From a bacterium (GTDB lineage Bacteria; Bdellovibrionota; UBA2428), in contig JAACVK010000022.1 of NCBI GenBank assembly GCA_009991595.1, positions 14,965 through 78,964 on the forward strand: a stretch of DNA of 64,000 nucleotides. The letters run 5' to 3'. Every line of letters starts with the position of its first letter. Positions within the stretch are counted from its first letter, which is position 1. The translations under genes were made by a program, and so were the position numbers. Positions 19,435-36,785 of this stretch are shown piece after piece. Below the pieces are notes generated by a model. That model had not been told where the DNA came from. It made no database searches and worked only from the letters and a program-made list of their open reading frames with translations.

Positions 19435-20915
19435 CTAGCCATCAACTCAGCACTAGAGATTAAACCTTGAAGGTAAGTAAATCCAAACAACACAAGCAGC
19501 GAAAACACTGTTGCCGCAATAGCCGTCAAACTAGCTCCCGAAGATGAAGTCTCTGAATTTGTTTTTTTTGAATCAATTGCTGGATATAAAGCCATTGGAA
19601 CTAGAGATCTTAAATAGAAGCCTAGCCCTAAAAAGGTTCCAATCAATGCCACTGCTAACAGCAAAAATGCTGAATTTTTAGCAAGCACCGACAACAAAAC
19701 ATATTTTGTGAAAAACCCAGGAAGAGGTGGAATTCCAGCCAATGATAACAATGCAAATCCCAACAAAACTAGGTAAAATGGGCTCAACTTGGACTTGAGT
19801 TCCACAAAAGAATTAATTTCTAAATCATCGTCCATGCTTCTTCCCAATCGAAGCAATGCAATTTCATGAACAGCAAAACAGATCAAAACACTAAGCGCAT
19901 AGACCAACAAAAAGCCGATAACACTTGGTAGGACGCTCAAACCATTAGGCAAAACTAATGCGACAAAACCAGCATTCACAACTCCAGAGTAGGCCAACAT
20001 GCGCCTTAGTCGGCTTTGGGTAAGGGCCATGACGGCGCCCAAAACAACGCTCAAGACACCTAACAGTTTTACATATAATGAAACTCCCGGAATGTCCCAA
20101 AGTCCACATTCACTGAAAGCCAAAACAATCGACGAGAACACACTTAACTTCGTTGCTCCGGCCAAAAAAGAGGCAATGGGAGCTGGGGCTCCTTGATAAA
20201 CATCTGCCGCCCAGAAATGAAAAGGAAACAGAGAAACTTTAAAAGCTAATGAACTAAAAACAAGAGCAACGGCCGTAAAGCACAGAAATTGTTGGGGGCC
20301 AGCTGCGGCAGTCATTGCAACCGATATGGCTTCAAATTTGAAAGATCCACTCACAGCAAAGAACAAACTTATTCCGAGCAAAAAGAAACAGGATACAAAA
20401 GCCCCCATCATCAAATACTTCATCGAAGCCTCTAAGCTTTTTTCTCGATTTGAATACAATGCGCTTAACAAATAAGCCGGAATTGATAGCACCTCTAGAT
20501 AAACAAAAAATGCCACCCAATTTCGAGCTGTAGGCAACAAACACATCCCCAAAACACAAATTAGCAAGAGAGCTCCCCACTCAGAATGTCGAGCGTAATC
20601 GGGGCCTCGAACATAGAGAGAGCTCAAGGCAGCAATCAAACAAATTCCGCCAGCAACTATCCTCTCCATGGGCCCGAGCTCCATTGACGACCCCAAGAAA
20701 AAACGTCCTTGGCTTAACAAAGAAGCAAAAAATAATACAGCCGCCCCAGAAAGAAAGCTAAAACTCAAAGTACGTAAAACCAGGTCTTTCGCTCTCATAG
20801 AAGCTGCAACAACAAGCACAGCAATCCCTGCAAATAACAGAATAAAAGGAGAAAGGTTTTTCCAATCGTCCGGCCCTAAATAAAAGATACTCGAATCAAA
20901 AAAATCAATCGGCAT
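19431..20915 (-). CDS. nuoN: NADH-quinone oxidoreductase subunit N (arm 2)
   Basis: YLEVLS, EASMKY, FKVSLFPFHFW, ATK, LAYSG, GIPPLPGFFTK. Confidence 0.9.
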   Translation of the reverse strand: MPIDFFDSSIFYLGPDDWKNLSPFILLFAGIAVLVVAASMRAKDLVLRTLSFSFLSGAAVLFFASLLSQGRFFLGSSMELGPMERIVAGGICLIAALSSLYVRGPDYARHSEWGALLLICVLGMCLLPTARNWVAFFVYLEVLSIPAYLLSALYSNREKSLEASMKYLMMGAFVSCFFLLGISLFFAVSGSFKFEAISVAMTAAAGPQQFLCFTAVALVFSSLAFKVSLFPFHFWAADVYQGAPAPIASFLAGATKLSVFSSIVLAFSECGLWDIPGVSLYVKLLGVLSVVLGAVMALTQSRLRRMLAYSGVVNAGFVALVLPNGLSVLPSVIGFLLVYALSVLICFAVHEIALLRLGRSMDDDLEINSFVELKSKLSPFYLVLLGFALLSLAGIPPLPGFFTKYVLLSVLAKNSAFLLLAVALIGTFLGLGFYLRSLVPMALYPAIDSKKTNSETSSSGASLTAIAATVFSLLVLFGFTYLQGLISSAELMAR

Positions 20916-20918
20916 TCA

Positions 20919-22418
20919 TTACCTCAATATCTCGCCTTGAAGGTTATAGATTATTGTAGCGGAAGCTCGAGCTGTAACGGCAATCAAACCTTGTCCCCAA
21001 AAGCCGAGAACAATCATTGCTATAATCATCGGGATAATTGAACCCCACTCTGAAAAAGATAGTTTTATCGGGTGGCTTTTCAAGACAGAGGAGGTTTCTC
21101 CGTAAATCATTCCGCGAACAATTCGAAGCATATAAACAGCTCCTAATAAAATTCCAAAACACGCAAAGAAAGCAAACCATGGTGATAAAACAAAGGTTCC
21201 GTTCAAAATAAGAAATTCACCAATAAACCCAGGAAGGCCCGGAAGTCCAATGGAGGCCATTACGCTCAAAACAAAAAGCATAGAAAGCCGTGGGTTAACA
21301 ATTCCCAATCCACCGTAGTCAGACAACTCTCTAGTGTGGGTGCGGTCATAGATGATTCCAAAAATTAAAAACAATGCGCCCGTGCTCAAGCCATGGGCAA
21401 TGTTTTGAAACATAGCGCCCTGAAATCCCGCCAACTGAAAACTAAACAAACCCAAAAGCATAAAACCCAAATGGGCGACGGAAGAGTAAGCAATGGTGCG
21501 CTTAATGTCGGTTTGCCTAAGAGCTCCGTAACTTCCTAAAATTATCCCGGCCAAAGCCAAAACCTTCATCGTAAACGAAACAACATCCAAAACGGCGATA
21601 GAAGGAAACAAAGCCAAACACCAACGAGCAATCCCGTAGACGCCAAGCTTTAATAAAACGCCAGCCAAGATCACAGAAGCGCCAGTCGGAGCCTCCGTGT
21701 GCGCATCAGGAAGCCAAACATGAAGAGGCCAAGCTGGAATCTTCACCAAAAAAGCAATCAAAAAGCCGCAGAAAACCCAAAAACGTGGAGACCACAATCC
21801 ATCTCCCAACAAGCCCAACTGGGCAATCGAGTGCCAGCCCATACTTTGAATGTCGGGCTGCACCCACAAATATAGAATGGCAGCCAACATGGCCAAAGAG
21901 CCCAACATGGTGAAGGCAAAAAACTTCAGCGCAGCATAAACTCGGTTCTTAGAGCCCCAAATTCCAATCAGAAAGAACATTGGAATAAGCATGGCCTCCC
22001 AAAAGATATAAAAGACAAAGGCATCAGCAGCCATCAACGACCCAACGCTTGCTGCATTTAAAAGCGCAAACAAGGCTAAATAAGATGAGCTAAGTTTTTC
22101 TTTGCCTAGTGCATATAAAGACAAACAAAAACTTAAAAACACATTAAGGCCTATAAGCGGTAAATTTAAACCATCTAACCCTAAAGCAAAATTAGACTTA
22201 AGCAGTGGAAAGAAATCAGAATTGAAAACAATCGGGAACATCCCGTCAGCGGTGCTTGAACGCCAAAGCAAACAGCTTTGATACAAAAACCAAAACCACG
22301 GCAAATGAAAAACCATGTTTGCCCATTGAGCCGCCTTTTTGTTTTTTCTGAAAGTAAACAATAGAAAGGCGAAAATGGCTGGCCAAAAGATGAGCATAGC
22401 TGTGTTTATAGGGTCCAT
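20919..22418 (-). CDS. nuoM: NADH-quinone oxidoreductase subunit M (arm 2)
   Basis: FWEAML, VKIPAWPLHVWLPDAHTEAPT, LLKLG, FIGE; ATG 22418 chosen for its GGGAG SD. Confidence 0.95.
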   Translation of the reverse strand: MDPINTAMLIFWPAIFAFLLFTFRKNKKAAQWANMVFHLPWFWFLYQSCLLWRSSTADGMFPIVFNSDFFPLLKSNFALGLDGLNLPLIGLNVFLSFCLSLYALGKEKLSSSYLALFALLNAASVGSLMAADAFVFYIFWEAMLIPMFFLIGIWGSKNRVYAALKFFAFTMLGSLAMLAAILYLWVQPDIQSMGWHSIAQLGLLGDGLWSPRFWVFCGFLIAFLVKIPAWPLHVWLPDAHTEAPTGASVILAGVLLKLGVYGIARWCLALFPSIAVLDVVSFTMKVLALAGIILGSYGALRQTDIKRTIAYSSVAHLGFMLLGLFSFQLAGFQGAMFQNIAHGLSTGALFLIFGIIYDRTHTRELSDYGGLGIVNPRLSMLFVLSVMASIGLPGLPGFIGEFLILNGTFVLSPWFAFFACFGILLGAVYMLRIVRGMIYGETSSVLKSHPIKLSFSEWGSIIPMIIAMIVLGFWGQGLIAVTARASATIIYNLQGEILR

Positions 22419-24328
22419 AAGAAAATAGCTCCCACAATTAACGAAGACCAAAAAACAAAGTGCCAAGCGTAGGTCTGAACACTGCCAGTATGAAACAAAG
22501 CCAAGAGCCGTCCGCTTAAACGTGTAAAACGAAACGAACCATTGGCAAGTCCATTAAAGGTAGTCTCGTCTGAAATGCGATTGATAAACCTTCCCGCTTT
22601 CATGGACGGCTTAATTAAAAGCAATTCAAAAGCTTCATCTACATAAAACTTATTGGTGCTCCACTTGTGAAGCGGTTCCGGAAGTATCTTAAACTCCGGG
22701 TTCCTTTGATAGATCTTAAAGGAATAATAAGCCACGGTTAAAGACAGTACGCTAGTAATTAGCATCAACAACCACTCGGCTAGGTGTGACAAGTGAGCCT
22801 GCTCACCAACCCCTACACCATACCAAGAGGAATGAACCCAATCCGTAATTTTTGTGAAATGGCCAAAGACCTCGGGCAACTCTAACCAGCCAATAAAAAG
22901 AGAAAGAAAAGCAAGGACAACAAGCGGCATATACATTAGTGGGTCAGATTCATGAGCCTTTTGAGCATACTCACTTCGAGCGCCCCCCCAAAAGCACAAC
23001 GTGTAGGCCCTAAACATGTAGGCGGCAGTCAATAGAGCTGCGCCTAACAAAAGAATGTATCCAAACACACCCTGTGCAGCAAAAACCTTCGCTAAGATCA
23101 TGTCCTTTGAAAAAAAGCCTGCCGTCAAAGGGAAACCAATAATGGCCAAAGTTCCAATGAGAAAACAAACGTGAGTGATCTTCATTTTATCTTTTAACCC
23201 ACCCATTAATGACATCTCTTGTTTGTGATGCATACCATGGATGACAGATCCCGCCGCCAAAAACAAAAGAGCCTTAAAACAAGCATGAGTTATAACGTGG
23301 AAAAACGCGGCAGCTGGACTGCCCGCCCCAAGAGCAACAAACATAAAGCCAAGCTGACTGACTGTAGAATACGCTAATACTTTTTTCACATCGGTTTGGC
23401 TAACAGCAATTAAAGCAGCAAGCCAAGCAGTAGACATTCCAATCCAAAAAGCAGCATCTACAATCACTGGACTCATAGCAAAAAGTGGCCAGACTCTACA
23501 GATAAGGAATATGCCTGAAGTGACCATTGTTGCAGCGTGGATTAAGGCAGAAACGGGCGTAGGGCCAGCCATTGCATCTGGTAGCCAGATATACAGAGGA
23601 ATTTGAGCAGACTTTGCGGTTGCCGCCCAAAGCAAAGAGCCTGCAAAAGTATACCAAGCCCAGGTAGGAACCCCGCTGCTTAAAAAAGCATAATCATTAA
23701 CTCTTTCCGCCAAGCGACTAATGTCTCCAGTTTGAAAAAAGGAAAAGGCAACAAACAGTGCGATAAGAAAACCTATGTCGCCCACTCGATTTGTAATAAA
23801 GGCCTTCATGCCAGCGGCGGTGTTTTCAGGCTTCTTATACCAGTAGCCAATAAGCAGATAGGAACAAAGGCCAACTCCTTCCCATCCAAGAAAGACAACG
23901 GCCAAATTAGAGGCCAACACCAACACGAGCATTGCTGCAAGAAATAGATTCAAGTATGAGAAAAAGCGCCAAGGGCTCTCTTCCTCTGACAGATAAGAAA
24001 TAGAATAAATATGAATCAACGATCCAATGCCGGTAATAACCAAAAGCATAACTGAGGTAATAGAGGTTAGTTCTAAATTAAAAGGAACATAGACGTGCCC
24101 ACTACTCATCCACGTGAAAAGTGGATCAATCAAAAAGTTTTGCTCTGGCGCAGAATTCAGTCCAGATAACTGGGAACACGCTACAACACTAAACCCAAAT
24201 GCAACTAGACTGGCCAAAGTTGCAACCAAGCCTGAGATCTTTGCACTCTTATTTTGGAGAATCACTCCGTTGAGCACGGCGCCAAGCAAAGGGGCCAGTA
24301 AAATCCATCTCAATCCTTCAAAAATCAT
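22406..24328 (-). CDS. nuoL: NADH-quinone oxidoreductase subunit L (arm 2, normal lateral helix)
   Basis: GWEGVGLCSYLLIG, KSAQIP, WLPDAMAGPTPVSALIHAATMV, HACFKA, SKD. Confidence 0.97.
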   Translation of the reverse strand: MIFEGLRWILLAPLLGAVLNGVILQNKSAKISGLVATLASLVAFGFSVVACSQLSGLNSAPEQNFLIDPLFTWMSSGHVYVPFNLELTSITSVMLLVITGIGSLIHIYSISYLSEEESPWRFFSYLNLFLAAMLVLVLASNLAVVFLGWEGVGLCSYLLIGYWYKKPENTAAGMKAFITNRVGDIGFLIALFVAFSFFQTGDISRLAERVNDYAFLSSGVPTWAWYTFAGSLLWAATAKSAQIPLYIWLPDAMAGPTPVSALIHAATMVTSGIFLICRVWPLFAMSPVIVDAAFWIGMSTAWLAALIAVSQTDVKKVLAYSTVSQLGFMFVALGAGSPAAAFFHVITHACFKALLFLAAGSVIHGMHHKQEMSLMGGLKDKMKITHVCFLIGTLAIIGFPLTAGFFSKDMILAKVFAAQGVFGYILLLGAALLTAAYMFRAYTLCFWGGARSEYAQKAHESDPLMYMPLVVLAFLSLFIGWLELPEVFGHFTKITDWVHSSWYGVGVGEQAHLSHLAEWLLMLITSVLSLTVAYYSFKIYQRNPEFKILPEPLHKWSTNKFYVDEAFELLLIKPSMKAGRFINRISDETTFNGLANGSFRFTRLSGRLLALFHTGSVQTYAWHFVFWSSLIVGAIFLWTL

Positions 24329-24642
24329 CCCTTCAGTCTCCTGTAATCATCTAAAACAACTGAGCCAAAACGTCGGGAAAGAATAACAAAAATTGACAAA
24401 GCAATTGCAGCCTCAGCTGCGGCCACTAAAACAATAAACAAAAACAAGGAGGCCCCATCAGGCGAGGAGTGATGCTTAGAAAAGGTCATCAAGAACAAAT
24501 TCACACCATTAAGCATTAGCTCTAAACACATAAGAGCAATGAGCCCACTTCTTTTACAAAGAAACCCATAAGCTCCAATGGCAAATAGAGCAATTGAAAC
24601 AAAAACATGAAACTCAAGTTCTCCAACAGGAAGGGATATCAC
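24325..24642 (-). CDS. nuoK: NADH-quinone oxidoreductase subunit K (arm 2)
   Basis: ELMLNG and VAAAEAA conserved glutamates. Confidence 0.95.
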   Translation of the reverse strand: MISLPVGELEFHVFVSIALFAIGAYGFLCKRSGLIALMCLELMLNGVNLFLMTFSKHHSSPDGASLFLFIVLVAAAEAAIALSIFVILSRRFGSVVLDDYRRLKG

Positions 24643-25196
24643 GGCTCACCTCGCGATTCATTTGAAGGGCTTCTCACAGATTTCGCCAACATGATTACCC
24701 CTACAATCGCCGCTAATATTAAAAAACCGGTGGCCTGAAATGGAAGCATATATGTGCTTACAAAATTATATGAAATTGCTTTTGCCGAAAGCGCAGTCAA
24801 ATTACTTTCCTGAAGCCCCGGCTCAAAGAGTCCGGGAACAGCCAAAAGAGCGACAACAACAACAAACATCGCCGTTGCAGCAAAAGCTAGTAACGCAACA
24901 CCCTTTTGCCCAGGAATAGCCACACGCGATGGCTTTAGATCCAAAAGCATGACAATAAAAACAAACAAAACTGCTATGGCTCCTGCATAGATAAGTACTT
25001 GAACAACACCGGCAAAGTAGGCTCCTTTTGCAAAATATAAAAAGGCAGTTAAAAAGAGTGTCGCCATCAGGGACAATGCAGAACTCACTGCGCTTTTAGA
25101 ATGCACAACCCCAATAGCAGCGGCCAAGGCCAATATGCCCACAACCACCTGGAACAAATTAACTTGTCCCATTACAACTATACCCTCGCTCATCAA
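24639..25196 (-). CDS. nuoJ: NADH-quinone oxidoreductase subunit J (arm 2)
   Basis: QVLIYAGAIAVLFVFIVML; 5 TM. Confidence 0.93.
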   Translation of the reverse strand: MMSEGIVVMGQVNLFQVVVGILALAAAIGVVHSKSAVSSALSLMATLFLTAFLYFAKGAYFAGVVQVLIYAGAIAVLFVFIVMLLDLKPSRVAIPGQKGVALLAFAATAMFVVVVALLAVPGLFEPGLQESNLTALSAKAISYNFVSTYMLPFQATGFLILAAIVGVIMLAKSVRSPSNESRGEP

Positions 25197-26272
25197 TAAG
25201 CTCCTTTTTGTAGGAAGCTAAAGATCATGGTCCCAATTAAATTTATAGTTGCCAACGGTAGTAGCACTTTCCAGCCAAGACCAACTAGTTGGTCATATCG
25301 AAACCTTGGAAGAGTCCAACGAACCCAAACAAAGACAAACATGAAAAAGAATACTTTTGCAGCAAAGCTTACAGCAGATAAAGCAGACGCAACCCAAGTT
25401 GCTTGGTCGCCGTAAAGGCCTAAACCTTCGACGAAAGAAACCAGCTGGTCTGGTGAAACAAAGGGAATGTTGTATCCACCCAAAAACACTGTAGCCATAA
25501 GTGCAGAGGCTAAATACATCGCTGCATACTCACCCAGAAAAAACAGGCCAAACTTAAGCCCTGAATATTCTGTATGATAACCAGCCACAAGCTCTGTCTC
25601 TCCTTCTGGCAAATCGAAGGGAAGGCGATTGCATTCTGCAAAAACTGAAACCCACATGATAAGAAAAACCAAAGGCTGCATAAAAAAGCCCCAAAAGGCC
25701 AATCTAGACCCAGCCCCTTGTAACGTTACTATTTCACTCAAGTTTAGTGTGCCGTAGCTAACAACCAAGGAAACCAAACAAAGTCCGATAGCAACTTCAT
25801 AGCTAATCATTTGAGAGCCCGCACGAAGCGCCCCCATTAATGAAAATTTGTTATTAGAGGCCCATCCCGCAATCAACACCGCGAAAACGTGAAGGCTTGT
25901 TATTGCCAAAAGGAAAAGAAAGCTCAAATCGCTTTTCACGATCTGAACTGCAAAAGACTCTCCGTTAATTGTAAATGGTTGAGCTATGGGAATCATAGAA
26001 AAGCCAACGATTGGAGGTAGAATAGCTAAAACTGGTGCAAAGATAAAAAGAAATTTACTAGCGCGAGCGGGTTGGTTTTCTTCTTTAAAAACCATCTTAA
26101 TGGCATCCGCCATAGGCTGAAGAAGTCCGAAAGGCCCAACTCGATTCGGGCCTGTTCGCCTCTGCAACCAAGCAGAGCCTCTTCGCTCGACCATTAGGAT
26201 AACAGGGACCCCGGTCAATACGGCAACTCCAACTAGAGGAACTAAAAACAAAGACCACAAAAGAGGGGTCAT
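25193..26272 (-). CDS. nuoH: NADH-quinone oxidoreductase subunit H (arm 2)
   Basis: GPNRVGPFGLLQPMADAIK, QMISYE, NRLPFDLPEGETELVAGY, TLPRFRYDQL. Confidence 0.97.
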   Translation of the reverse strand: MTPLLWSLFLVPLVGVAVLTGVPVILMVERRGSAWLQRRTGPNRVGPFGLLQPMADAIKMVFKEENQPARASKFLFIFAPVLAILPPIVGFSMIPIAQPFTINGESFAVQIVKSDLSFLFLLAITSLHVFAVLIAGWASNNKFSLMGALRAGSQMISYEVAIGLCLVSLVVSYGTLNLSEIVTLQGAGSRLAFWGFFMQPLVFLIMWVSVFAECNRLPFDLPEGETELVAGYHTEYSGLKFGLFFLGEYAAMYLASALMATVFLGGYNIPFVSPDQLVSFVEGLGLYGDQATWVASALSAVSFAAKVFFFMFVFVWVRWTLPRFRYDQLVGLGWKVLLPLATINLIGTMIFSFLQKGAY

Positions 26273-27639
26273 TTTTGAGTTTGCCTTTCTCTAACCAAAG
26301 ACATCAAAGCGGCCATTTGACCTGAAATCTTTGGTAGCGCCGGTTGAACTTCGTCATCAGGCTTCGCGATTGCCTCAAACTCAGGCCGAAATTTTTCAAG
26401 CATAGAAACAACAGGCATCGCACAAGCGTCTGATAAAACACAAATGGTCTTACCAGCCATGTTGTTGCAGGCAGATTTAATCTTGTCGATGTCTGAAAAA
26501 CTGCCTTGACCCATCGTCAATCGCTTCAACATCTTAGAAACCCATTTGGTTCCCTCTCGGCAAGGAACGCATTGTCCGCAGGACTCATGCGCATAAAAAC
26601 GTGCCGTTCTCATTGCCATCTCGGGAATGCTACGTGAATCATCTATAACAATGACCGCACCACTTCCCATCATTGTTTTTTTTGCGGCCAAAGAATCAAA
26701 GTCCATAGGAGTATCAAACTCATCTGCCCTCAATAAAGGTGAAGAACTTCCACCAGGGTAACAAGCCTTAAACTTTCGACCTTCTAGAGGGCCTCCACAA
26801 ATGTCGTTTAAAAGTGAGTTTAAAGGAAGTCCAAGTGGGATCTCATAAAAACCTGGGCGCTTCACATCACCGGACACACATAATAATTTAGTGCCCGCCC
26901 CTCGAGGAGTTCCATTCCCCAATTTTACAAACCACTCTGGGCCGTTATTCAAAATTCCAGGCACATGAGCCAAGGTCTCAACATTGTTTACAATCGTTGG
27001 TCCACCAAACAAGCCGCTAATCGCAGGAAATGGTGGCTTTAATCGAGGTTGTCCACGATCACCTTCAAGCGATTCGATCAAACCGGTTTCCTCACCACAA
27101 ATATAAGCACCTGCACCAGGGTGAACTGTAATGTCCAAGCTTCTCGAGCTTCCAAAAATATTCTCGCCCAAGTATCCAGCCTTGTAAGCCTCTTCTATGG
27201 CTTGCTCTAATCTTTCACGAGCTAATCGCAATTCATAACGAACATAAATATACGCTGTTTTAGAGCCAATCGCAGAAGCCGCACAAATCATGCCTTCAAT
27301 AAGGCGATGAGGAAGGTGCTCCATAATTTGTCGATCTTTAAAAGTGCCTGGCTCGCCTTCGTCGGCGTTGCAAACTAAATAAACAGGCTTGGTTGGGTTC
27401 TTTGGAATAAAGCTCCACTTTACTCCGGCAGGAAATCCAGCGCCACCCAAACCACGCAATCCAGCGTCTTTCACGGTTGTGATCAGGGAGTCTGGCTCAG
27501 CTTTAACAGCACCTCGCGCAGCTTTGTAGCCACCCAATTTTTTTTCAAAAACATCAAGCGTCCAAGACTTAGGCTCTCCGTATCCAGCAATAACAACTCG
27601 GTTCTCTAGGGGATGCGCTTCGTAAATTCGCTGACTCAC
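26269..27639 (-). CDS. nuoF: NADH-quinone oxidoreductase subunit F (FMN/NADH-binding)
   Basis: GLGGAGF, NADEGEPG, GAGAYICGEET, ESCGQCVPCREG...TIC (cluster N3). Confidence 0.96.
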   Translation of the reverse strand: MSQRIYEAHPLENRVVIAGYGEPKSWTLDVFEKKLGGYKAARGAVKAEPDSLITTVKDAGLRGLGGAGFPAGVKWSFIPKNPTKPVYLVCNADEGEPGTFKDRQIMEHLPHRLIEGMICAASAIGSKTAYIYVRYELRLARERLEQAIEEAYKAGYLGENIFGSSRSLDITVHPGAGAYICGEETGLIESLEGDRGQPRLKPPFPAISGLFGGPTIVNNVETLAHVPGILNNGPEWFVKLGNGTPRGAGTKLLCVSGDVKRPGFYEIPLGLPLNSLLNDICGGPLEGRKFKACYPGGSSSPLLRADEFDTPMDFDSLAAKKTMMGSGAVIVIDDSRSIPEMAMRTARFYAHESCGQCVPCREGTKWVSKMLKRLTMGQGSFSDIDKIKSACNNMAGKTICVLSDACAMPVVSMLEKFRPEFEAIAKPDDEVQPALPKISGQMAALMSLVRERQTQK

Positions 27640-28169
27640 GCAACACTCCCCTCTTGAATCCTGTCTTCATAAGAAGCACATGCCCATTTACCAGCGCGCA
27701 AAGCTTCTACAATCTTCTGCAGCTTTTCTAGATTGAGCTCTTCAAAATAATCCCAGTTGTTGGCTTGAATCACGGGGGCAGTCCCGCAACTCGCCAAACA
27801 CTCAACTCGCTCTACACGAAACACTCCGTCTTTAGAGTTTCCAGAATCATCGAGCTCCATGTTTTTTTCCATCCACTCTAAAAGTTGGTCACTCCCCTTC
27901 AAGTAGCAAGTCAAATTATGGCAAACCTGAAGAACATATTTTCCACCCGCTTCAAAACGAAACAGACTATAAAAGGAGGCCACTTCTTTAACGCGAGCAG
28001 GGCTTATATTCATTTTCTCAGCGACATGCTCCATCGCATCCAAGGACAGATACCCCACTTCATTTTGAACGAAGTGAAGCAATGGAATTAAAACCGCATC
28101 TTGAACAGGATATCGAGACTTTAACCATTCAAACTTCTTTTCGAGAGCAGGGGAAAACTTGTAACTCAT
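27636..28169 (-). CDS. nuoE: NADH-quinone oxidoreductase subunit E
   Basis: VASFY, CHNLTC and CLASC [2Fe-2S] ligands. Confidence 0.95.
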   Translation of the reverse strand: MSYKFSPALEKKFEWLKSRYPVQDAVLIPLLHFVQNEVGYLSLDAMEHVAEKMNISPARVKEVASFYSLFRFEAGGKYVLQVCHNLTCYLKGSDQLLEWMEKNMELDDSGNSKDGVFRVERVECLASCGTAPVIQANNWDYFEELNLEKLQKIVEALRAGKWACASYEDRIQEGSVA

Positions 28170-28711
28170 TTTAAATCTCCCTCGGCTTGAACAACTGTAG
28201 AGCCAAAAGGGTCAAAGACAGGTTCGTCCTGACTGCTAACTTCAAACTCCTGCCGATAGTCGACAACAAAATCCTTTCTTAAAGGATGCCCCTTAAAAGA
28301 CGGGGGCAAAAGCATTCTTCTTAAATCAGGATGACCTGTAAAAATAATCCCATACATATCGTAAGCTTCTCGCTCCAGCCAGGAAGCACCCTTCCATAAC
28401 TGGTAAACCGAAGGAAGCTCGGGCTTGGTATCATTTTCAACTCGAGCCACCACGCGCATGCGTTTAGCAGTATCCATAGAGATCAACTCGTAAAAAACAT
28501 TAAAGCGTGGAGAACTTGGATGATCATCGTAAGCGCTTAAGTCTGCCAAATGAACAAACGCACTCTGTTCTAAGCCTCGAAGGTATGCAAGGAACTGTAT
28601 AATTCCCCTTGAGTCGACATACACTTCCCATTCTCCAGAAGAGCTCTCTCTTGCCTCTAAAATTTTAAATTTGCCTTCTGCATCAACAAGCCAAGCAGGT
28701 TTCGAGCTCAT
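28166..28711 (-). CDS. nuoC: NADH-quinone oxidoreductase subunit C
   Basis: WLEREAYDMYGI..GHPDLRR..GHPLRKDF; ATG 28711 overlaps the nuoA stop (ATGA). Confidence 0.94.
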   Translation of the reverse strand: MSSKPAWLVDAEGKFKILEARESSSGEWEVYVDSRGIIQFLAYLRGLEQSAFVHLADLSAYDDHPSSPRFNVFYELISMDTAKRMRVVARVENDTKPELPSVYQLWKGASWLEREAYDMYGIIFTGHPDLRRMLLPPSFKGHPLRKDFVVDYRQEFEVSSQDEPVFDPFGSTVVQAEGDLK

Positions 28712-29085
28712 GATTTCTCCCATTCAAGCGCGCCAGAACGATATTCAAACCATAAGCTCAAAACAAAGTAGAATAAAAAGAATCCCGTGAGGCCCATTGT
28801 AATCCAACCAAGCGCAATCATTTCATCCCAGGCAATAGCAAGGGGTAAAAGAAAGGCTACTTCTAAATCAAACAAAAGAAACAAAATCGCGATCAAGTAA
28901 TATTTAACGCTGACTTTATCACGAGCGTTTCCAGACACCGTCACACCACACTCGTAGGGCTGAATTTTTACACCCTCAAGATTGCGAGGGCCAAGAAATC
29001 TTCCAACAAACAGTGCGCCGCCAGCTACCAAAGAAGCAAAGCCCAGCATGGCTAACAATGGCAATAAAGTTTCGGCGCCGGTCAT
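28708..29085 (-). CDS. nuoA: NADH-quinone oxidoreductase subunit A (arm 2)
   Basis: PYECG, FLLFDLEVAFL; strong SD AAGGAG. Confidence 0.95.
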   Translation of the reverse strand: MTGAETLLPLLAMLGFASLVAGGALFVGRFLGPRNLEGVKIQPYECGVTVSGNARDKVSVKYYLIAILFLLFDLEVAFLLPLAIAWDEMIALGWITMGLTGFFLFYFVLSLWFEYRSGALEWEKS

Positions 29086-29100
29086 CCATACTCCTTAAAT

Positions 29101-30618
29101 CTACATTCCAACAAAAAAGTTCAATGCGTTCTTAGCCACCTTCATAACCGGCTCCCAGTAAATTCCAAGAACCAAGTTTGGCAAGGCAAGCAATACAATG
29201 AAGGCCAAAGATACTCTAGAGTCAAAACTCGTCTTACCCTCAGGCATAGCGACCTCGGCTTCATCTAAATACATGGCTCGAATTATCTTCACATAATAGA
29301 AAAGCGAGATCACGGAATTAAGCGCTGCAATCAAAGCAAAGCCATACATTTCACGCGCCAAAACCGCCGAGAACAAATACACTTTTCCTATAAAGCCCGC
29401 AAAGGGAGGAAGCCCCACCAAGGAAAACAAAAAGATGGCCATACAAGCTGCGTGAATGGGCTTTCTTGAGCCCAGCCCACGAAACTCGCTTATGCCGTCT
29501 CCGCCAAAGCAATCTTCGACCTTAGAGGTAACCCAAAAAGCTCCAAAATTCATGAAACAATAGACAACCAGATAGAAAATGATCGCCGTAAGCCCTTCAA
29601 AACTTTGAGTCGTCGCCCCCATCAAGATGTAACCCGCGTGAGCGATGCTTGAGTAAGCTAAAATTCTTTTGACTGAAAACTGACCTAAAGCAGCCAGGTT
29701 CCCCATGAACATAGTGAAGACAGACGAAATCATTAAAAGTTTAGTCCAGGCAACTGGGCCAACGGTATAAAACGATATAGCGGAAGCACTGCCCATTTGA
29801 GCAACTGCTGCAGCTCCCTCTTGGACCGGCAAACTAAAGCCAGTAATGAAAAACCTCATTAGCAACGCAAATCCAGCGGCCTTAGGAGCCACTGAAAATA
29901 GTGCGGTTACTGGGGTTGGAGCACCTTCATAAACATCCGGAGTCCACATGTGCATGGGCGCGGCTGAAACTTTATATCCAATTCCAGCAAACATTAGGAT
30001 GACTCCTGCCCAAAGAACGTTTGGCAAATCAGAAGTGGCTGTGGAAGAGAAAAACTCTCTTAAAGAGATCAAGTCCATGTGGCCGGTGGCCCCATAAACT
30101 AAGCTCATTCCAAAAACCATAAGAGCTGAAGCCATAGCACCATAAACCACGTATTTCATAGAGGCTTCCACGGAAGCCGTTCTTTCTCTTCGAAATCCCG
30201 CCAACGTAAAGCTCAAAATAGAAACCGTTTCAATCGACAAATACAGCATCAAGAAGTGATTTGATACACCCATGAACATAAGCCCTGTGCAAAGAGCCAA
30301 CAAAATGGAAAAATACTCGGGACGTCGATCAGCATATATCTCTTTTGATTCCATGCTCAAAAGAACACCAAACAAAACAACTATCACCGAAAAAATGGCA
30401 AAGAACAGTCCTAGCGAATCAAATACGATCAATCCGTTAAATGCGTCTTGAGCGGGATGCCCAACCATCGTGGCAAGTAAAACACCAGCTCCGAGCAATG
30501 TCACTATTGAAGAAACAACCGCAAACATCTTGTTTCGAATCCAAAGCCCGCCAACAAGAACAATGATCGCCCCCAAACAAAGCAACATATGGGGGCTAAC
30601 AAGAAACAGTGATCTCAT
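29101..30618 (-). CDS. nuoN: NADH-quinone oxidoreductase subunit N (arm 1)
   Basis: SIETVS, EASMKY, YKVSAAPMHMWTPDVYEGAP, APK, KRILAYSS, FIGK. Confidence 0.96.
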   Translation of the reverse strand: MRSLFLVSPHMLLCLGAIIVLVGGLWIRNKMFAVVSSIVTLLGAGVLLATMVGHPAQDAFNGLIVFDSLGLFFAIFSVIVVLFGVLLSMESKEIYADRRPEYFSILLALCTGLMFMGVSNHFLMLYLSIETVSILSFTLAGFRRERTASVEASMKYVVYGAMASALMVFGMSLVYGATGHMDLISLREFFSSTATSDLPNVLWAGVILMFAGIGYKVSAAPMHMWTPDVYEGAPTPVTALFSVAPKAAGFALLMRFFITGFSLPVQEGAAAVAQMGSASAISFYTVGPVAWTKLLMISSVFTMFMGNLAALGQFSVKRILAYSSIAHAGYILMGATTQSFEGLTAIIFYLVVYCFMNFGAFWVTSKVEDCFGGDGISEFRGLGSRKPIHAACMAIFLFSLVGLPPFAGFIGKVYLFSAVLAREMYGFALIAALNSVISLFYYVKIIRAMYLDEAEVAMPEGKTSFDSRVSLAFIVLLALPNLVLGIYWEPVMKVAKNALNFFVGM

Positions 30619-30619
30619 A

Positions 30620-32176
30620 TCAATTGAGCGTCTCCACTAAGAAGTTTAAAGAAGTCTTCATTAAAGTAATAAAAGGACTTGGATAAACACCAATCCAAAC
30701 ACACAACAAAGCCAATGGAGCCAACACGGCCCATTCATTAGCCCTCATTGGTGCCAAGCCTTCCGCTGGAACCAATTGCCCTGTGGTCATGTCTTTTTCT
30801 TTTGTTGTCCATGGTCCCAAGAAAACTCGTTGAACCATCCACAACAAATATGCGGCGGTTAAAACAATTCCCAATGCCGCAATAATTGTCTCAGTTCTAT
30901 AGACCGGGAATGCCCCTAGAAAAACCAATGCCTCAGAGACAAATCCATTTAAAGTAGGAAGCCCAAGACTGGCAAAGACAGCCAAGGTCCAAACGGCCGT
31001 GATAACGGGCGCTCTTTGAGCAATTCCGCCAAAACCTAGTTCACCATTGTGCTCAATGTAACGATGATGAAGACGATCGTATAAAACCCCCACTAACATA
31101 AACATCATTGCAGAAGACAGCCCGTGATTGAACATTTGTAGAACCGCGCCCTGCATCCCTTCAGGCGTAAAAACGGCCATTCCTAAGATGCAATAACCCA
31201 TGTGGCTCACCGAAGAGTAGGCAACCAGTTTTTTCAAATCGGTTTGGGCCATCGCACAGAAGGCCCCGTAGATAATATTTATAATACCTAAAACAACTAA
31301 GATGTATGAAAAAGCTTGAGTGGCTTGTGGAAAGAGTTGGTAGTTAACTCTCAAAAACCCATACACCCCCATCTTTAATAAAACACCGGCTAGAATAACA
31401 GAAACCGCGGTGGGAGCTTGAACGTGAGCCCAAGGAAGCCAAGTGTGAAAGGGAAAGATTGGCACCTTCACGGCGAATCCAAAAAAGAGTAGCCACCAAA
31501 CCGTTTTATCAAATGGTAGATCAGTTCCAAAGATATGAACCGTATAACCAGACCAGTCCTGGCTAGCTAAACTAATAAGATTAAAAGTCGCTAAGTGATT
31601 GCCAGAAGGATCTCGGCTGTAAAAATACAGAGCGAGCATTCCGACAAGCATCAAGACCGAGCCAAAAAGCGTGTAGAGAAAAAATTTAATAGCAGCGTAT
31701 TCTTTTTTCTCTCCACCCCAAATTCCGACAAGAAAATACATAGGAAGAAGCATTAGCTCCCAGAAAACATAGAACAAGAAGAAATCTAAGGCGCAAAAAA
31801 CACCCAACATTCCCACATGCAAAAGAAGAAACATCATAAAATAGCCTTTTACAAATTTCTTCACATTCCAGCTGGCAAACATACACAAAAAGCTGAGCAT
31901 TGTGCCCAAAAGAATCATCAAGATGCTTATCCCGTCGACTCCAAGATGATATTCAACGTTTATGCTTGGTATCCAAATAGCTTGCTCAATAAATTGGGCT
32001 TCACTGAGTCCAGAATCAAACTGACCAAGTAAGTTTAAAGCCAAAACGAAGGGAACCAGGGTAACCGCTACCGATATCCACTTAATTAAGTTCTCCTGCT
32101 TTGAGGGCACAAAAAGTAGCCCAAAAAAACCAAGCAACGGGAAAAAAATAATCCAACTAAGAATATGTTCAGTCAT
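30620..32176 (-). CDS. nuoM: NADH-quinone oxidoreductase subunit M (arm 1)
   Basis: FWELML, VKVPIFPFHTWLP, LLKMG, DLKKLVAYSS, FVSE. Confidence 0.97.
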   Translation of the reverse strand: MTEHILSWIIFFPLLGFFGLLFVPSKQENLIKWISVAVTLVPFVLALNLLGQFDSGLSEAQFIEQAIWIPSINVEYHLGVDGISILMILLGTMLSFLCMFASWNVKKFVKGYFMMFLLLHVGMLGVFCALDFFLFYVFWELMLLPMYFLVGIWGGEKKEYAAIKFFLYTLFGSVLMLVGMLALYFYSRDPSGNHLATFNLISLASQDWSGYTVHIFGTDLPFDKTVWWLLFFGFAVKVPIFPFHTWLPWAHVQAPTAVSVILAGVLLKMGVYGFLRVNYQLFPQATQAFSYILVVLGIINIIYGAFCAMAQTDLKKLVAYSSVSHMGYCILGMAVFTPEGMQGAVLQMFNHGLSSAMMFMLVGVLYDRLHHRYIEHNGELGFGGIAQRAPVITAVWTLAVFASLGLPTLNGFVSEALVFLGAFPVYRTETIIAALGIVLTAAYLLWMVQRVFLGPWTTKEKDMTTGQLVPAEGLAPMRANEWAVLAPLALLCVWIGVYPSPFITLMKTSLNFLVETLN

Positions 32177-32179
32177 TTC

Positions 32180-34279
32180 TCAAAGTACCCCTATCAATAG
32201 ATAAATTGTGAGAAGAGCCACCGCGGCCACCATCAAATACCTTTGAATCTTTCCATTTTGTAATGTTCTTAAGGAGGCGCCCAAATACTGAGGAACGCTT
32301 CCACCTACACCATCTACCAACACTTCATCTATTACAGTGTCATCAAATTTGCCGATGAACGTTTTCACTACGGCATTCACGTCTTTCCAGCCATCAACCA
32401 AAATTCGATCAATGATCAGATCGTCAAAACGAGCCATCAACCTTGAGAAAGGAAGAAACACTCTTTTTATAAAGACATCTTTATAGAGCCAATCGAAATA
32501 ATAAAGATTATCGATAGCCTTATGAACAAAATTTGGCCAAAGCTTTGCAAGCTTTTCAGCCGGAATAGTTTTGGACTTATACACAAGCCAGCTGAAAACA
32601 ATCCCCAGAGTTGCTAGAACCACAGAAGCGATCATGCCAGGAAGATGCGCCTGGTGAAGCAAATGCTCGAAGTGCTCATCAACCTTAACCACTGGAGCTT
32701 TGATCAACTTAACAAACCATTCGTTTCCACCACCAAGAACAAAGTCTCCGTGCCCCAAAAGGCCGCCCGTGACAGATCCCGAGAATAAAACAGACAAAGA
32801 AAGTCCAGCCAAAACAACCAACGGTAGCCACATATTCCACGGAACTTCATGGGCATGTTCAACATGTTTTTTATCTCCAGCCTCGCCGAAGAAGGTCATA
32901 AACATCAAGCGGAACATATAAAAGGCAGTCAAGCCGGCCGTTAAAAAGCCAGCAATCGGAAGAAACATATGCTCTGGATGTTCGAAACCACCGTAAGCAA
33001 GCGCACTCACCAAAATAGCGTCCTTAGAAACAAAGCCACTAAAGAGCGGAACTCCAGAGATGGCCAGCGTTGCTACAAGCATCGCCTTGTAGGTAATAGG
33101 CAATCTTTTTCTCAAATCGCCCATTTTGCGCATATCTTGTTCGTGATGCATGGCATAGATCACAGCTCCAGAAGCCATAAACAAACAAGCCTTAAAAATT
33201 GCATGCGTAATCAAGTGCATGAAAGAAGCGGTATACGCGCCCACTCCGACGGCCAAAACCATGTACCCCAACTGAGAAAGAGTGGAGTAAGCCAACACTT
33301 TTTTAATATCAAACTGCTTTATGGCCAATATAGCGGCAAACAAAGAAGTGAAAGCGCCCACATAAGCAATTAAAGGAAGAACTCCACCAAGCTCAAGCAA
33401 GGGGAAGGTTCTAATGATCAAATAAACACCGGCAGCCACCATCGTTGCAGCATGAATCAACGCAGAAACGGGAGTTGGTCCTTCCATCGCATCAGGAAGC
33501 CAAACTTGAAGTGGGAACTGAGCAGACTTTCCAACCGTTCCACAAAAAATAAGGAAACCAATAAAGGTTGCTGTCGCAAAACCTAAGGTTTCTCCACCGA
33601 AGGCTCCTTGTTCGATTGCCGCATAAATATCATCAAAGCGGAATGATCCAATTTGAGTGAACAGCGCAAGCATACCAATGAATAAGAGAGTGTCTCCAAT
33701 TCGAGTGGTCATAAAGGCTTTAATAGAAGCATTTGCAGCTGAGGGCTTGTGTCGATAAAAGCCGATCAACAAGTAGGAACAAAGTCCCATGACTTCCCAA
33801 AACATAAAGAGCGTAAACAAGTTGTCAGAAATAACCAGAGCCAACATGGCTGAGGTGAACAAAGACAAAAAGGCAAAAAAAGAAGCGTATCTATATCCGT
33901 CCGACTCTTTTCCATCATAATCGCGCATGTAACCGGTTGAGAACAAATGAATCAAAGTGGCGCAGAGGGTTACCATGAAAAGCATCACGGCGGCCAAATT
34001 ATCCAAACGAACACCTAGCTCTAATTTAAAAGGGTGAGCTGCTGTTCCAGAGTCCAGCCATGTCCAATGAGCCGTAACAACCCAATTTGGATCAAAATTG
34101 CTCCACATATTAGCAAAAATAATTGAGGCACATATAAAAGAGACAAAAATCGCAGAAACACTAACCCAGTCACCCATTCTAGGGAGTCTTTTTCCAACAA
34201 ACGCCTGGATCAAATAAGCCACCAAGGGAAACGCCGGAATCAAAAGGGCAAGTGTTATCAAAGAGTCGTTAGCCATCAT
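32180..34279 (-). CDS. nuoL: NADH-quinone oxidoreductase subunit L (arm 1, extended lateral helix)
   Basis: FWEVMGLCSYLLIG, KSAQFP, WLPDAMEGPTPVSALIHAATMV, HAIFKA, SKD; duplicated FDDxxIDxxLVDG segment. Confidence 0.97.
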   Translation of the reverse strand: MMANDSLITLALLIPAFPLVAYLIQAFVGKRLPRMGDWVSVSAIFVSFICASIIFANMWSNFDPNWVVTAHWTWLDSGTAAHPFKLELGVRLDNLAAVMLFMVTLCATLIHLFSTGYMRDYDGKESDGYRYASFFAFLSLFTSAMLALVISDNLFTLFMFWEVMGLCSYLLIGFYRHKPSAANASIKAFMTTRIGDTLLFIGMLALFTQIGSFRFDDIYAAIEQGAFGGETLGFATATFIGFLIFCGTVGKSAQFPLQVWLPDAMEGPTPVSALIHAATMVAAGVYLIIRTFPLLELGGVLPLIAYVGAFTSLFAAILAIKQFDIKKVLAYSTLSQLGYMVLAVGVGAYTASFMHLITHAIFKACLFMASGAVIYAMHHEQDMRKMGDLRKRLPITYKAMLVATLAISGVPLFSGFVSKDAILVSALAYGGFEHPEHMFLPIAGFLTAGLTAFYMFRLMFMTFFGEAGDKKHVEHAHEVPWNMWLPLVVLAGLSLSVLFSGSVTGGLLGHGDFVLGGGNEWFVKLIKAPVVKVDEHFEHLLHQAHLPGMIASVVLATLGIVFSWLVYKSKTIPAEKLAKLWPNFVHKAIDNLYYFDWLYKDVFIKRVFLPFSRLMARFDDLIIDRILVDGWKDVNAVVKTFIGKFDDTVIDEVLVDGVGGSVPQYLGASLRTLQNGKIQRYLMVAAVALLTIYLLIGVL

Positions 34280-34614
34280 CCTCGCAGCTCCATAACTTGA
34301 TCTGGATCAATGTTTTTCTTAGCGCCAAACACACGCAACACGATTGCCAAGGCAACCGCGGCCTCAATTGCAGCCAAGACTATTATAAAGAGACTAAAGA
34401 TCTGTCCATCTAACCATGGTGAGCTTTGAGCAGAGTCAGCCTTGAGGGCATAAAAAGCAACGAAGTTAATAGCAGCGGCGTTAAGAACCAGCTCAACACC
34501 CATAAAAACTCCGACTGCGTTTCTTCGGGTTAAAATAGTAAATAACCCAAAAACAAAGAACACAGTCGACATTGCCAAATAAATTGTCAAATTATGAGCA
34601 ATTCCCGCAAACAT
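34276..34614 (-). CDS. nuoK: NADH-quinone oxidoreductase subunit K (arm 1)
   Basis: RRN, ELVLNAA, LAAIEAAVALA. Confidence 0.95.
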   Translation of the reverse strand: MFAGIAHNLTIYLAMSTVFFVFGLFTILTRRNAVGVFMGVELVLNAAAINFVAFYALKADSAQSSPWLDGQIFSLFIIVLAAIEAAVALAIVLRVFGAKKNIDPDQVMELRG

Positions 34615-34616
34615 AA

Positions 34617-35141
34617 CTATGAATTACCCCCATCTTGATCCTTTTTGAGAATATTTGGCCTGGCTACAACAATGGCGCCAATAAGACCGAACAAAAGAAC
34701 AATCGCAACATATTCAAAAATCAAAGCATAGGGCCCAGTTAAAGCCTGACCAATACGAATTGTTGTGTTTTCGTAATTTGGTATACGCAATTCACCCCAA
34801 TTTGTGGAAACAAGTAACTTAAACATTCCCAACATGAGAGCGATCGATAAAATGGTTGGTAAAAACATCTTCTTTACCCCATCCAAGAAACGTCTTTTAT
34901 AGATACTCTCCGACATCATCACCGCAAATAAGATCACAACAATAACGCCGCCAACATAAATGATCAGCTGAGCAGCCGCCAAGAAGTCAGCACCTAGCGA
35001 AGCATATACACCAGCCACCGCAAGCAACGACCCAATCAAGGCAACAGCCGCATAAAGAATGTTTGGATGAAGCGCCACGACAGCCGAACAAACAACGCCA
35101 CCTAAAAAGCAAAATACAACAAAAAAATCTAGAAAACTCAT
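34617..35141 (-). CDS. nuoJ: NADH-quinone oxidoreductase subunit J (arm 1)
   Basis: ADFLAAAQLIIYVGGVIVVILFAVM. Confidence 0.94.
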   Translation of the reverse strand: MSFLDFFVVFCFLGGVVCSAVVALHPNILYAAVALIGSLLAVAGVYASLGADFLAAAQLIIYVGGVIVVILFAVMMSESIYKRRFLDGVKKMFLPTILSIALMLGMFKLLVSTNWGELRIPNYENTTIRIGQALTGPYALIFEYVAIVLLFGLIGAIVVARPNILKKDQDGGNS

Positions 35142-36283
35142 CCAGCACCCATCATTCCGCTGATCAGCTCAATCATACTTTGTCCTTTAAATATCCAAAC
35201 CCACAGAGAAGCTCCGACCAAATTAAAGAAGGCTATTGGAATTAGGTATTTCCAACAAAGATCCATTAGCTGATCCACTCGCAATCGCGGAAGCGTCCAA
35301 CGCAACCACATCACCACAAAAACAATGACCGAAGCTTTGCCTAGAAAGATCAAGATCATAAACAACGTTTGAATAAGAGGATCAAGACTTTTACCAGCAA
35401 GAGACCAGCCCAAATGAATGTTTTCTATGTTTACGAAAGGGAGATGCCAACCGCCCAAGAAAATAGCCGCGGCAACACACGCGAACATAATTACATCTGC
35501 AAATTCAGCCAAAGCATATAAACCAAAACGCATTCCACTAAACTCAGTATTAAACCCAGAAACAAGTTCTGACTCGGCTTCAGGCAAATCAAAAGGCGTT
35601 CTATTACATTCCGCCAAGGCGGCTACAAAATAGACAAAGAAGTTTAGAAACAAAAACGGGTTATGGAAAATGTACCAAAAACTACCCGAACCCAGCCAAG
35701 CTTGGCCGTCGACAATTTTGATCATGCTCATCTGCCCAGAAACAACAACCACACTTAATAGAGCGATCCCAAGCGGAATTTCATAAGAGACAATCTGTGC
35801 AGCTCCACGCATTCCACCCAACAAAGACCATTTATTTTCTGACGACCATGCACCCAACAAAATCCCCAGAGAAACCAAGGAGGCGAGCGCCATGACATAA
35901 AAAATTCCAATATCTAAGTCGGCACCGATAACGTATTTCGAAAAAGGAATAGCAGCAAAAGCGCCCAAGGCTCCGGCAGTCACTAAGCCCGGAGCAAGGT
36001 TGTAGATAAACATGTCTGCATTTTTAGTTGCAGTATCTTCCTTAAGAAACATTTTGATTCCATCAGCAAAGAATTGAAGTATCCCGAAAGGGCCTACCCG
36101 GTTGGGGCCAATTCTCTCTTGAAAGTCGGCCGCAACCTTTCTTTCAATATAAGTACAAATCCCACCAATAGGCATTGCGAACCCAAGAATCACAATCACC
36201 GCAGCGGCAATTGAAAAAACGAAAAAGGGCACGTTTGGAGGTATAAAATCGTTCAGACCACTTAAAAACTCGGCAAGGCTCAC
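35138..36283 (-). CDS. nuoH: NADH-quinone oxidoreductase subunit H (arm 1)
   Basis: ERKVAA..GPNRVGPFG, QIVSYE, NRTPFDLPEAESELVSG, TLPRLRVDQL. Confidence 0.97.
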   Translation of the reverse strand: MSLAEFLSGLNDFIPPNVPFFVFSIAAAVIVILGFAMPIGGICTYIERKVAADFQERIGPNRVGPFGILQFFADGIKMFLKEDTATKNADMFIYNLAPGLVTAGALGAFAAIPFSKYVIGADLDIGIFYVMALASLVSLGILLGAWSSENKWSLLGGMRGAAQIVSYEIPLGIALLSVVVVSGQMSMIKIVDGQAWLGSGSFWYIFHNPFLFLNFFVYFVAALAECNRTPFDLPEAESELVSGFNTEFSGMRFGLYALAEFADVIMFACVAAAIFLGGWHLPFVNIENIHLGWSLAGKSLDPLIQTLFMILIFLGKASVIVFVVMWLRWTLPRLRVDQLMDLCWKYLIPIAFFNLVGASLWVWIFKGQSMIELISGMMGAG

Positions 36284-36287
36284 TTCT

Positions 36288-36737
36288 TTAGGAATCCTTT
36301 ACATTTTCAAATCGATGTTTAAAGGCCGCATCTTCTCTCAAAGCCTGCTTTCTTTCAATTGCATCTCTCACCCAATCTATATCTCCTTTTTTCCACTCGT
36401 AGATAAGACCGACCAAAAGAACAAACAAAAAGCCAAAGGCCAATAAAAATATTGGCAATGCTCCACCGTTAATTGCAGCTTCTCTAAAAAGCCTCATTAT
36501 CGGAAAAAGCAATGCAACTTCAACATCAAAAACGAGAAAGACAATCGCAACCAAGTAAAAGCGATTGTTGAACATTACAAACGCTGAGCCAACAGGGTCT
36601 TCTCCACATTCATAGGTGGCTAGCTTTCCCGAATAGGGATAACTAGGCCTTAGAAATTTTGATACAAACAAAATTCCCACAGGCAAAACTGCAGCTAAAA
36701 CAATAAAAGATAAGGCGTTTGCAAACTCTTGGAGCAT
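36288..36737 (-). CDS. nuoA: NADH-quinone oxidoreductase subunit A (arm 1)
   Basis: TYECGEDP, FLVFDVEV; ATG 36737 preferred over the upstream TTG. Confidence 0.94.
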   Translation of the reverse strand: MLQEFANALSFIVLAAVLPVGILFVSKFLRPSYPYSGKLATYECGEDPVGSAFVMFNNRFYLVAIVFLVFDVEVALLFPIMRLFREAAINGGALPIFLLAFGFLFVLLVGLIYEWKKGDIDWVRDAIERKQALREDAAFKHRFENVKDS

Positions 36738-36785
36738 GTTATCGACTATTTTTATCACAGACTGATAAGGTGACAACCAACTGAC

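Follow-up and report, generated by a model that had tools for sequence, protein, structure and literature searches.

A two-module lateral helix in NuoL encoded beside a single nuoM in a Bdellovibrionota genome

Long lateral helices in complex I

The lateral helix (HL) of NuoL is described as touching a discontinuous helix in each of L, M and N, and flexible insertions of 6-7 residues are tolerated at several sites of the E. coli HL (PMC3274701). In the 2M complex I (Chadwick et al. 2018, as cited in PMC9040806, PMC6606698 and PMC7117926), a second nuoM lies beside the first, and NuoL is reported to have an HL longer by one module of ~26 residues (PMC9040806, PMC6606698). Nitrospira moscoviensis CI_1 and Anaerolinea thermophila are examples given in PMC6606698 and PMC7117926. 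HL insertions are already known from clusters of canonical order as well: Yu et al. (2022, PMC9040806) describe ~26 additional residues in the NuoL of Complex_I_1 and Complex_I_2 of 'Ca. Manganitrophaceae', each with a single nuoM, and ask whether the insertion makes room for an extra pump or marks a cluster in transition. [quoted passage not shown]

The NuoL analyzed here, NuoL1, can be compared with both systems. Like the 2M NuoLs, it has an HL lengthened by one module at the same position; unlike the 2M clusters, its membrane arm (arm 1) encodes one nuoM. It shares with the 'Ca. Manganitrophaceae' proteins the HL insertion of ~26 residues in a cluster of usual gene content, but it belongs to another phylum. 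It also differs from them in that the nuoL1 set consists of membrane subunits only and is fused, head to tail, to another set bearing nuoC, nuoE and nuoF.

The solved NuoL, NdhF and ND5 chains (E. coli 3rko_L, Paracoccus 8qby_L, T. elongatus 6hum_F, Thermus 4he8_L and others) have the same 16-helix fold as NuoL1, with Foldseek TM-scores of 0.70-0.77, and share the Y-F-D, D-x4-D and Q-x-G landmarks of its HL, but each has one module where NuoL1 has two. Of 44 PDB sequences that matched, not one has a best stretch extending past query residue 631, and the alignment to 6hum_F skips NuoL1 residues 625-647. MrpA, both that of the same genome (contig C97) and 6z16_A, is likewise antiporter-like, and TM15 and TM16 are again separated by a lateral helix; unlike that of NuoL1, this helix spans one partner and is followed by a NuoJ-like domain. 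The TM15-TM16 spacer, judged by hydropathy, is ~42 residues in the genome's own MrpA, ~85 in NuoL2 of the neighboring gene set, and 114 in NuoL1.

The nuoL1 locus and its duplicated module

The window, a stretch of 64,000 nucleotides from one contig, carries two consecutive membrane-arm gene sets on the minus strand, both transcribed in the same direction. The first consists of nuoA1 (36288-36776), nuoH1 (35138-36283), nuoJ1 (34617-35141), nuoK1 (34276-34614), nuoL1 (32180-34279), nuoM1 (30620-32176) and nuoN1 (29101-30618). The translation of nuoL1 is a 699-aa NuoL: it scores 636.3 bits against the family model NF005141 (cut-off 556) and 631.2 bits against TIGR01974 (cut-off 407.5). The 518-aa product of nuoM1 scores 585 bits against TIGR01972 (cut-off 263.8) and the 505-aa product of nuoN1 scores 385 bits against TIGR01770. 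As the first-pass annotation had stated, nuoM1 is the sole nuoM of this arm, and the gene order is nuoL1, one nuoM and nuoN, not the nuoL-M-M-N of 2M complex I. There is no nuoE or nuoF in the first set; both lie downstream in the second, which occupies 19431-29085 and contains nuoA2, nuoC, nuoE, nuoF, nuoH2, nuoJ2, nuoK2, nuoL2 (22406-24328; 640 aa, one module), nuoM2 (20919-22466) and nuoN2 (19431-20915).

The source genome (124 contigs, 90.6% complete) contains eight PF00361 genes, i.e., those for L1, M1, N1, L2, M2 and N2 plus MrpA and MrpD on another contig. It has one nuoB, and its sole nuoD adjoins a second nuoC-like gene and a gene for a NuoI-like 2x[4Fe-4S] ferredoxin; Rieske, cytochrome b and cytochrome c genes are neighbors of these nuoD and NuoI-like genes. 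A NuoG domain was not found in this 90.6% complete assembly.

HL lies in the 114-residue stretch between the last two transmembrane helices of NuoL1 (aa 567-680, 32240-32581). Its distal anchor, TM15 (aa 548-566, 32582-32638), was placed by hydropathy and falls in a helix predicted by AF2 at 535-568; TM16 (aa 681-699, 32183-32239), placed by hydropathy, alignment and AF2, is preceded by Q674-x-G676. Between them are: i) a Y-F-D segment with Asp596 (aa 593-616, 32432-32503); ii) HL module 1 (aa 617-643, 32351-32431), which reads F-D-x4-D and then V-D-G; and iii) HL module 2 (aa 644-670, 32270-32350), which reads the same. The tandem duplication of ~27 aa proposed earlier is borne out. The repeat has a period of 27 residues, and the local BLOSUM62 score between its copies is 57 while shuffled sequences give 17.6 +/- 3.6, none of 20000 shuffles equaling it. 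The likeness is concentrated in the first 14 residues, nine of which are identical. At the DNA level just 30 of the 81 bases agree, from which the duplication is judged to be old. The Y-F-D segment was also considered as a third repeat and rejected: its score was reached by 3794 of 20000 shuffles against module 1 and by 6352 of 20000 against module 2, and it is used only as a landmark.

The distance from Asp596 of Y-F-D to Gly676 of Q-N-G, 32250-32494 on the DNA, is 81 residues in NuoL1 and 52 for the corresponding span in NuoL2, the same counts as first given; both are inclusive, the index differences being 80 and 51. The extra length is therefore 29 residues in NuoL1, a 27-residue module plus two, while it is 26 in most relatives. 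The landmarks Asp596, Asp619, Asp646 and Gly676 follow one another at +23, +27 and +30; one-module NuoLs have the first Asp and steps of +24 and +27, and NuoL2 has its landmarks at +24 and +51 from the first Asp.

An AF2 model of NuoL1 made with a 127-row alignment (pLDDT 90.7) predicts a helix at 592-649, shorter helices at 651-659 and 661-673, and TM16 at 678-698. Both modules are predicted to be helical. HL is not folded back in the monomer models, where pLDDT past residue 640 is just 49-67 and drops below 50 within aa 649-660. In Foldseek comparisons, full-length solved NuoL chains superpose on the model at 13-15 A rmsd, and entries with a shorter modelled NuoL chain, from which the HL end and TM16 are presumably absent, superpose at 3.8-5.8 A. 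The hydrophobic-moment phase along HL differs by ~180 degrees between the modules, as an ideal helix would show with any 27-residue period. Kinks or breaks are implied, under each of the hypotheses weighed below alike.

Spread and descent of two-module NuoLs

The long NuoL was found in 18 of 19 searched genomes of the window's family, at 64-76% identity, and several further families of the phylum have it as well. Wherever the locus of a relative continues past the long L (14 loci), the order is A-H-J-K-L(long)-M-N with one nuoM; in a fifteenth (L115) the contig ends just after the long L. Outside the phylum, two modules occur in 17 of 80 loci, each with one nuoM, and the record titles name Bacteroidetes, Chlorobiaceae, Chlorobiales MAGs, Prosthecochloris, Melioribacteraceae, Planctomycetota, Binatia, 'delta' MAGs and Acidobacteriota. 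One of these loci (L010) belongs, by its title, to a cultured strain, Prosthecochloris vibrioformis DSM 260. A search with the HL of a two-module NuoL from a 'delta proteobacterium' MAG (L028) gave 495 matches; the best 120 were all at least 73% identical and included no Nitrospira.

Among 111 aligned NuoLs with known neighbors the Asp-to-Gly spans are bimodal, 79 falling at 51-53 residues and 32 at 77-82. The context of these 32 two-module NuoLs is readable: 30 are followed by one M and then N, and two reach a contig edge. No extra gene is conserved in the 32 clusters. The first-pass annotation took an HL extension of this size as a mark of 2M complex I; the size fits, but the specificity fails, because two-module NuoLs adjoin a single nuoM in every neighborhood that could be read. 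Within the NuoL clade of NuoL1 the extension is the prevailing state. Of the 150 nearest representatives (50%-identity clusters of a 1.84-billion-protein library), 103 have two modules, 27 have one, nine are intermediate, three have three modules, three have large inserts and five are fragments. Thus, about two thirds of the nearest NuoL clusters combine three pump genes only with a strap reaching ~40 A beyond that of any solved complex I.

The HL duplication is ancient, and strong purifying selection acts on both of its modules. Across 127 two-module NuoLs in one alignment, Asp619, Asp624 and Asp651 never vary, and Asp596, Asp646, Gln674, Gly676 and Tyr681 are nearly invariant; all eight are invariant in a 55-sequence two-module set. 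The Q-x-G...Y elbow ahead of TM16 is common to the one- and two-module classes. Module spacing in 96 two-module sequences (95 representatives and NuoL1) is 26 residues in 80 and 27 in 16, and the lineage of NuoL1 shows the same one-residue lengthening in both modules. Two modules within one protein resemble each other more closely (BLOSUM 21.9) than modules taken from different proteins do (17.8 +/- 1.0; 0 of 5000 permutations), with control segment pairs giving z values of -1 to 2.4, though differences in rate between lineages could also produce such an excess.

NuoL1 is nothing out of the ordinary among the two-module NuoLs, which form a very large, old clade. In a tree built with FastTree from 522 columns, HL columns excluded (a single run with weak deep nodes), it falls in a clade of 51 tips, of which 46 have two modules and two have one (support 0.86). 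It is joined there by two-module NuoLs of Prosthecochloris and of MAGs that carry the labels Bacteroidetes, Chlorobiaceae and Melioribacteraceae. Taking all 245 tips of the tree together, there are at least 16 changes of module number with gene content unchanged. The two-module clade goes with a single nuoM and with clusters that lack nuoE/F: where nuoA is visible, nuoE/F occur in 0 of 29 two-module clusters as against 28 of 36 one-module clusters, although the clusters are not phylogenetically independent, and the remaining eight of the 36 show that one-module clusters without nuoE/F also exist.

Occupancy of the longer strap

The first-pass annotation had read the doubled strap as the sign of a cryptic extra-pump complex, with either a second copy of NuoM1 or NuoM2 taken from the neighboring set. 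The result at this locus corrects the latter reading: the doubled strap is a lineage trait, and nuoL1, nuoM1 and nuoN1 supply the arm, so that NuoM2 is not required. An L1-M1-M2-N1 arm is the most improbable of the arrangements weighed here. In its favor, nuoM2 is encoded on the strand of nuoM1, ~8 kb further downstream, and the order of first set and then second set recurs in all five family loci in which both are visible (a sixth locus ends inside the second set). As a general answer it finds no support, because relatives with three antiporter-like genes carry the long NuoL. One of them, a 100% complete genome (G027), has exactly three PF00361 genes, encoding L (726 aa), M and N, and a Melioribacteraceae MAG (G042) likewise has exactly three, so a second nuoM is not needed wherever a long strap occurs; in three relatives' loci (L118, L119 and L120) the long-NuoL cluster stands alone, with no second set adjacent. 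Arm 2, furthermore, has its own one-module NuoL2 and needs NuoM2 itself. Hardly more credible is the idea that one of the repeats is a neutral relic that loops out and has no function. The low AF2 confidence around the start of module 2 and the tolerance of E. coli HL for short flexible insertions (PMC3274701) would agree with it; against it, the Asp pairs of both modules are kept in the 127 sequences from many phyla, the duplication has been retained in spite of the divergence of its DNA, and both modules are predicted to be helical. The same conservation suggests that module 2 binds something, and an improbable but more serious proposal is that the partner is not an antiporter: the extra module might bind or bridge a neighboring respiratory complex, a gap filled with lipid, or an as yet unrecognized small membrane subunit whose gene lies elsewhere. 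Two of the nearest representatives (P0176 and P0194) have ~140 hydrophobic residues separating module 1 from module 2, so the strap can accommodate membrane-embedded mass at that point, and the sole nuoD and the NuoI-like gene of the source genome stand beside genes for Rieske, cytochrome b and cytochrome c proteins. The 32 two-module clusters, on the other side, share no extra gene. In established complex I structures a continuous charged axis runs along the arm, and a non-pump spacer would interrupt it.

The choice is then chiefly between three pumps and four, and our tentative preference, a slight one, is for an arm of three, L1-M1-N1, with a longer HL brace. HL module 1 would clamp NuoM as the single module of the solved enzymes does, and module 2 would clamp the paralogous NuoN, or else the path of HL would be kinked; the extra ~40 A would make a longer brace, with the last transmembrane helix anchored further towards NuoK/J/A. 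This arrangement is favored because the gene content agrees with a 1:1:1 stoichiometry, and we know of no case in which one antiporter-like subunit fills two positions. The acceptance of short insertions by E. coli HL (PMC3274701) also speaks for it. Several features point away from three pumps and keep alive the alternative, for which we would give roughly one chance in three, that NuoM is present in two copies. In such a four-slot arm, L1-M1-M1-N1, HL would act as a ruler with one NuoM clamped per module. The extra length (29 residues here, 26 in most relatives) is about the width of one antiporter; module 1 keeps its spacing from the Y-F-D landmark (+23 versus +24 in one-module NuoLs) and module 2 its spacing to Gly676 and TM16 (+30 versus +27). 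With HL described as contacting one discontinuous helix per pump (PMC3274701), the four evenly spaced docking points suggest four subunit widths. The conserved Q-x-G...Y elbow suggests that TM16 docks in the usual place, and the AF2 models, in which HL is not folded back and on which full-length chains fit only at 13-15 A, count on the same side, if to a limited degree at a pLDDT of 49-67. The Asp pairs of both modules are preserved, three of the four residues without exception and Asp646 nearly so; the modules of one protein resemble each other in excess and share a one-residue change; and no extra gene is conserved in the 32 clusters. The absence of nuoE/F from all 29 two-module clusters fits a low-potential donor able to pay for a fourth pump, and the HL insertion described for the 2M enzymes (PMC9040806, PMC6606698) has the same size and position.

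Set against L1-M1-M1-N1 are the want of a precedent for one antiporter-like subunit in two non-equivalent positions, and the fact that it would turn a large share of bacterial complex I into unnoticed four-pump machines. The one-module clusters without nuoE/F also count against it, and the repeated changes of module number at constant gene content can be read either way. If the arrangement L1-M1-M1-N1 were nevertheless correct, and again we would rate this as possible but doubtful, the two-nuoM clusters would be later duplications of a subunit that was already present twice. A large share of the complex I that lacks an NADH module would then pump one extra proton, the assumed proton-to-electron ratio would be off by one proton per two electrons in many anaerobes, green sulfur bacteria and predatory bacteria, and gain or loss of a single 26-residue module would switch an enzyme between three and four pumps.

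The L-M-M-N order itself was not found in the annotated loci. Adjacent M-M pairs, sought as neighboring TIGR01972 or PF00361 matches, were absent among the matches listed for 201 genomes of the window's phylum and for 251 genomes of the phylum of the Prosthecochloris locus, and were also absent from four genomes with three nuoM matches and from five of these 251 with two low-scoring matches. In the three-match genomes the arrangement is not L-M-M-N: a full operon is accompanied, on its upstream side, by an additional (L')-M-N set.

Two membrane-arm gene sets with a single nuoB and nuoD

Two complete membrane-arm gene sets run in the same direction on the minus strand of the window (19431-36776). 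Against these two sets, the genome, which is 90.6% complete, has only a single nuoB, a single nuoD and a NuoI-like ferredoxin gene (contigs C67 and C107 included); no NuoG domain was found in it at this level of completeness. A single quinone module would have to be common to both membrane arms. The two-set order is seen in all five of the family loci that show both sets; the sixth, L122, ends at nuoF.

A nuoC-like gene, nuoD and the gene for the NuoI-like 2x[4Fe-4S] ferredoxin lie with their downstream neighbors on C107 (locus L002, 1847-10430). Directly downstream are genes for a HEAT-repeat protein, a Rieske protein, a split cytochrome b and a multi-haem cytochrome c of 968 aa. This arrangement places the genes of the quinone module in one cluster with those of a bc-type complex.

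Other genes of the same genome

The nuoN2 stop codon is overlapped by the gene immediately downstream, which encodes a 968 aa TPR-repeat protein (window 16528-19434, minus strand) and is followed by that for seryl-tRNA synthetase. The two remaining antiporter-like genes of the genome are those for MrpA (763 aa) and MrpD (497 aa), which together with small subunits form an Mrp-type antiporter operon on contig C97 (locus L001, 2979-7833).

Variant NuoL proteins and nuo loci

Among the NuoL cluster representatives, P0176, P0194 and P0259 (930-1030 aa) carry an insert that separates the two F-D-x4-D modules of the lateral helix. The insert adds ~140 residues in P0176 and P0194, where its hydrophobicity would suffice to form several membrane helices, and ~70 in P0259. 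Three modules in tandem are present in P0198, P0207 and P0278, with an Asp-to-Gly span (Y-F-D to Q-x-G) of 103-105 residues.

In other families of the phylum, three loci (L130, L131 and L132, from genomes G168, G194 and G185, respectively) have a full nuoA-to-N operon with an additional nuoM-nuoN pair directly upstream; in L132 this pair is preceded by a divergent NuoL-like gene (642 aa). In the relative G030, the coding sequence of the long NuoL (L121, 6562-8642) is broken into one open frame of 421 aa and another of 307 aa; a frameshift, a pseudogene or an error in the assembly may explain the break.
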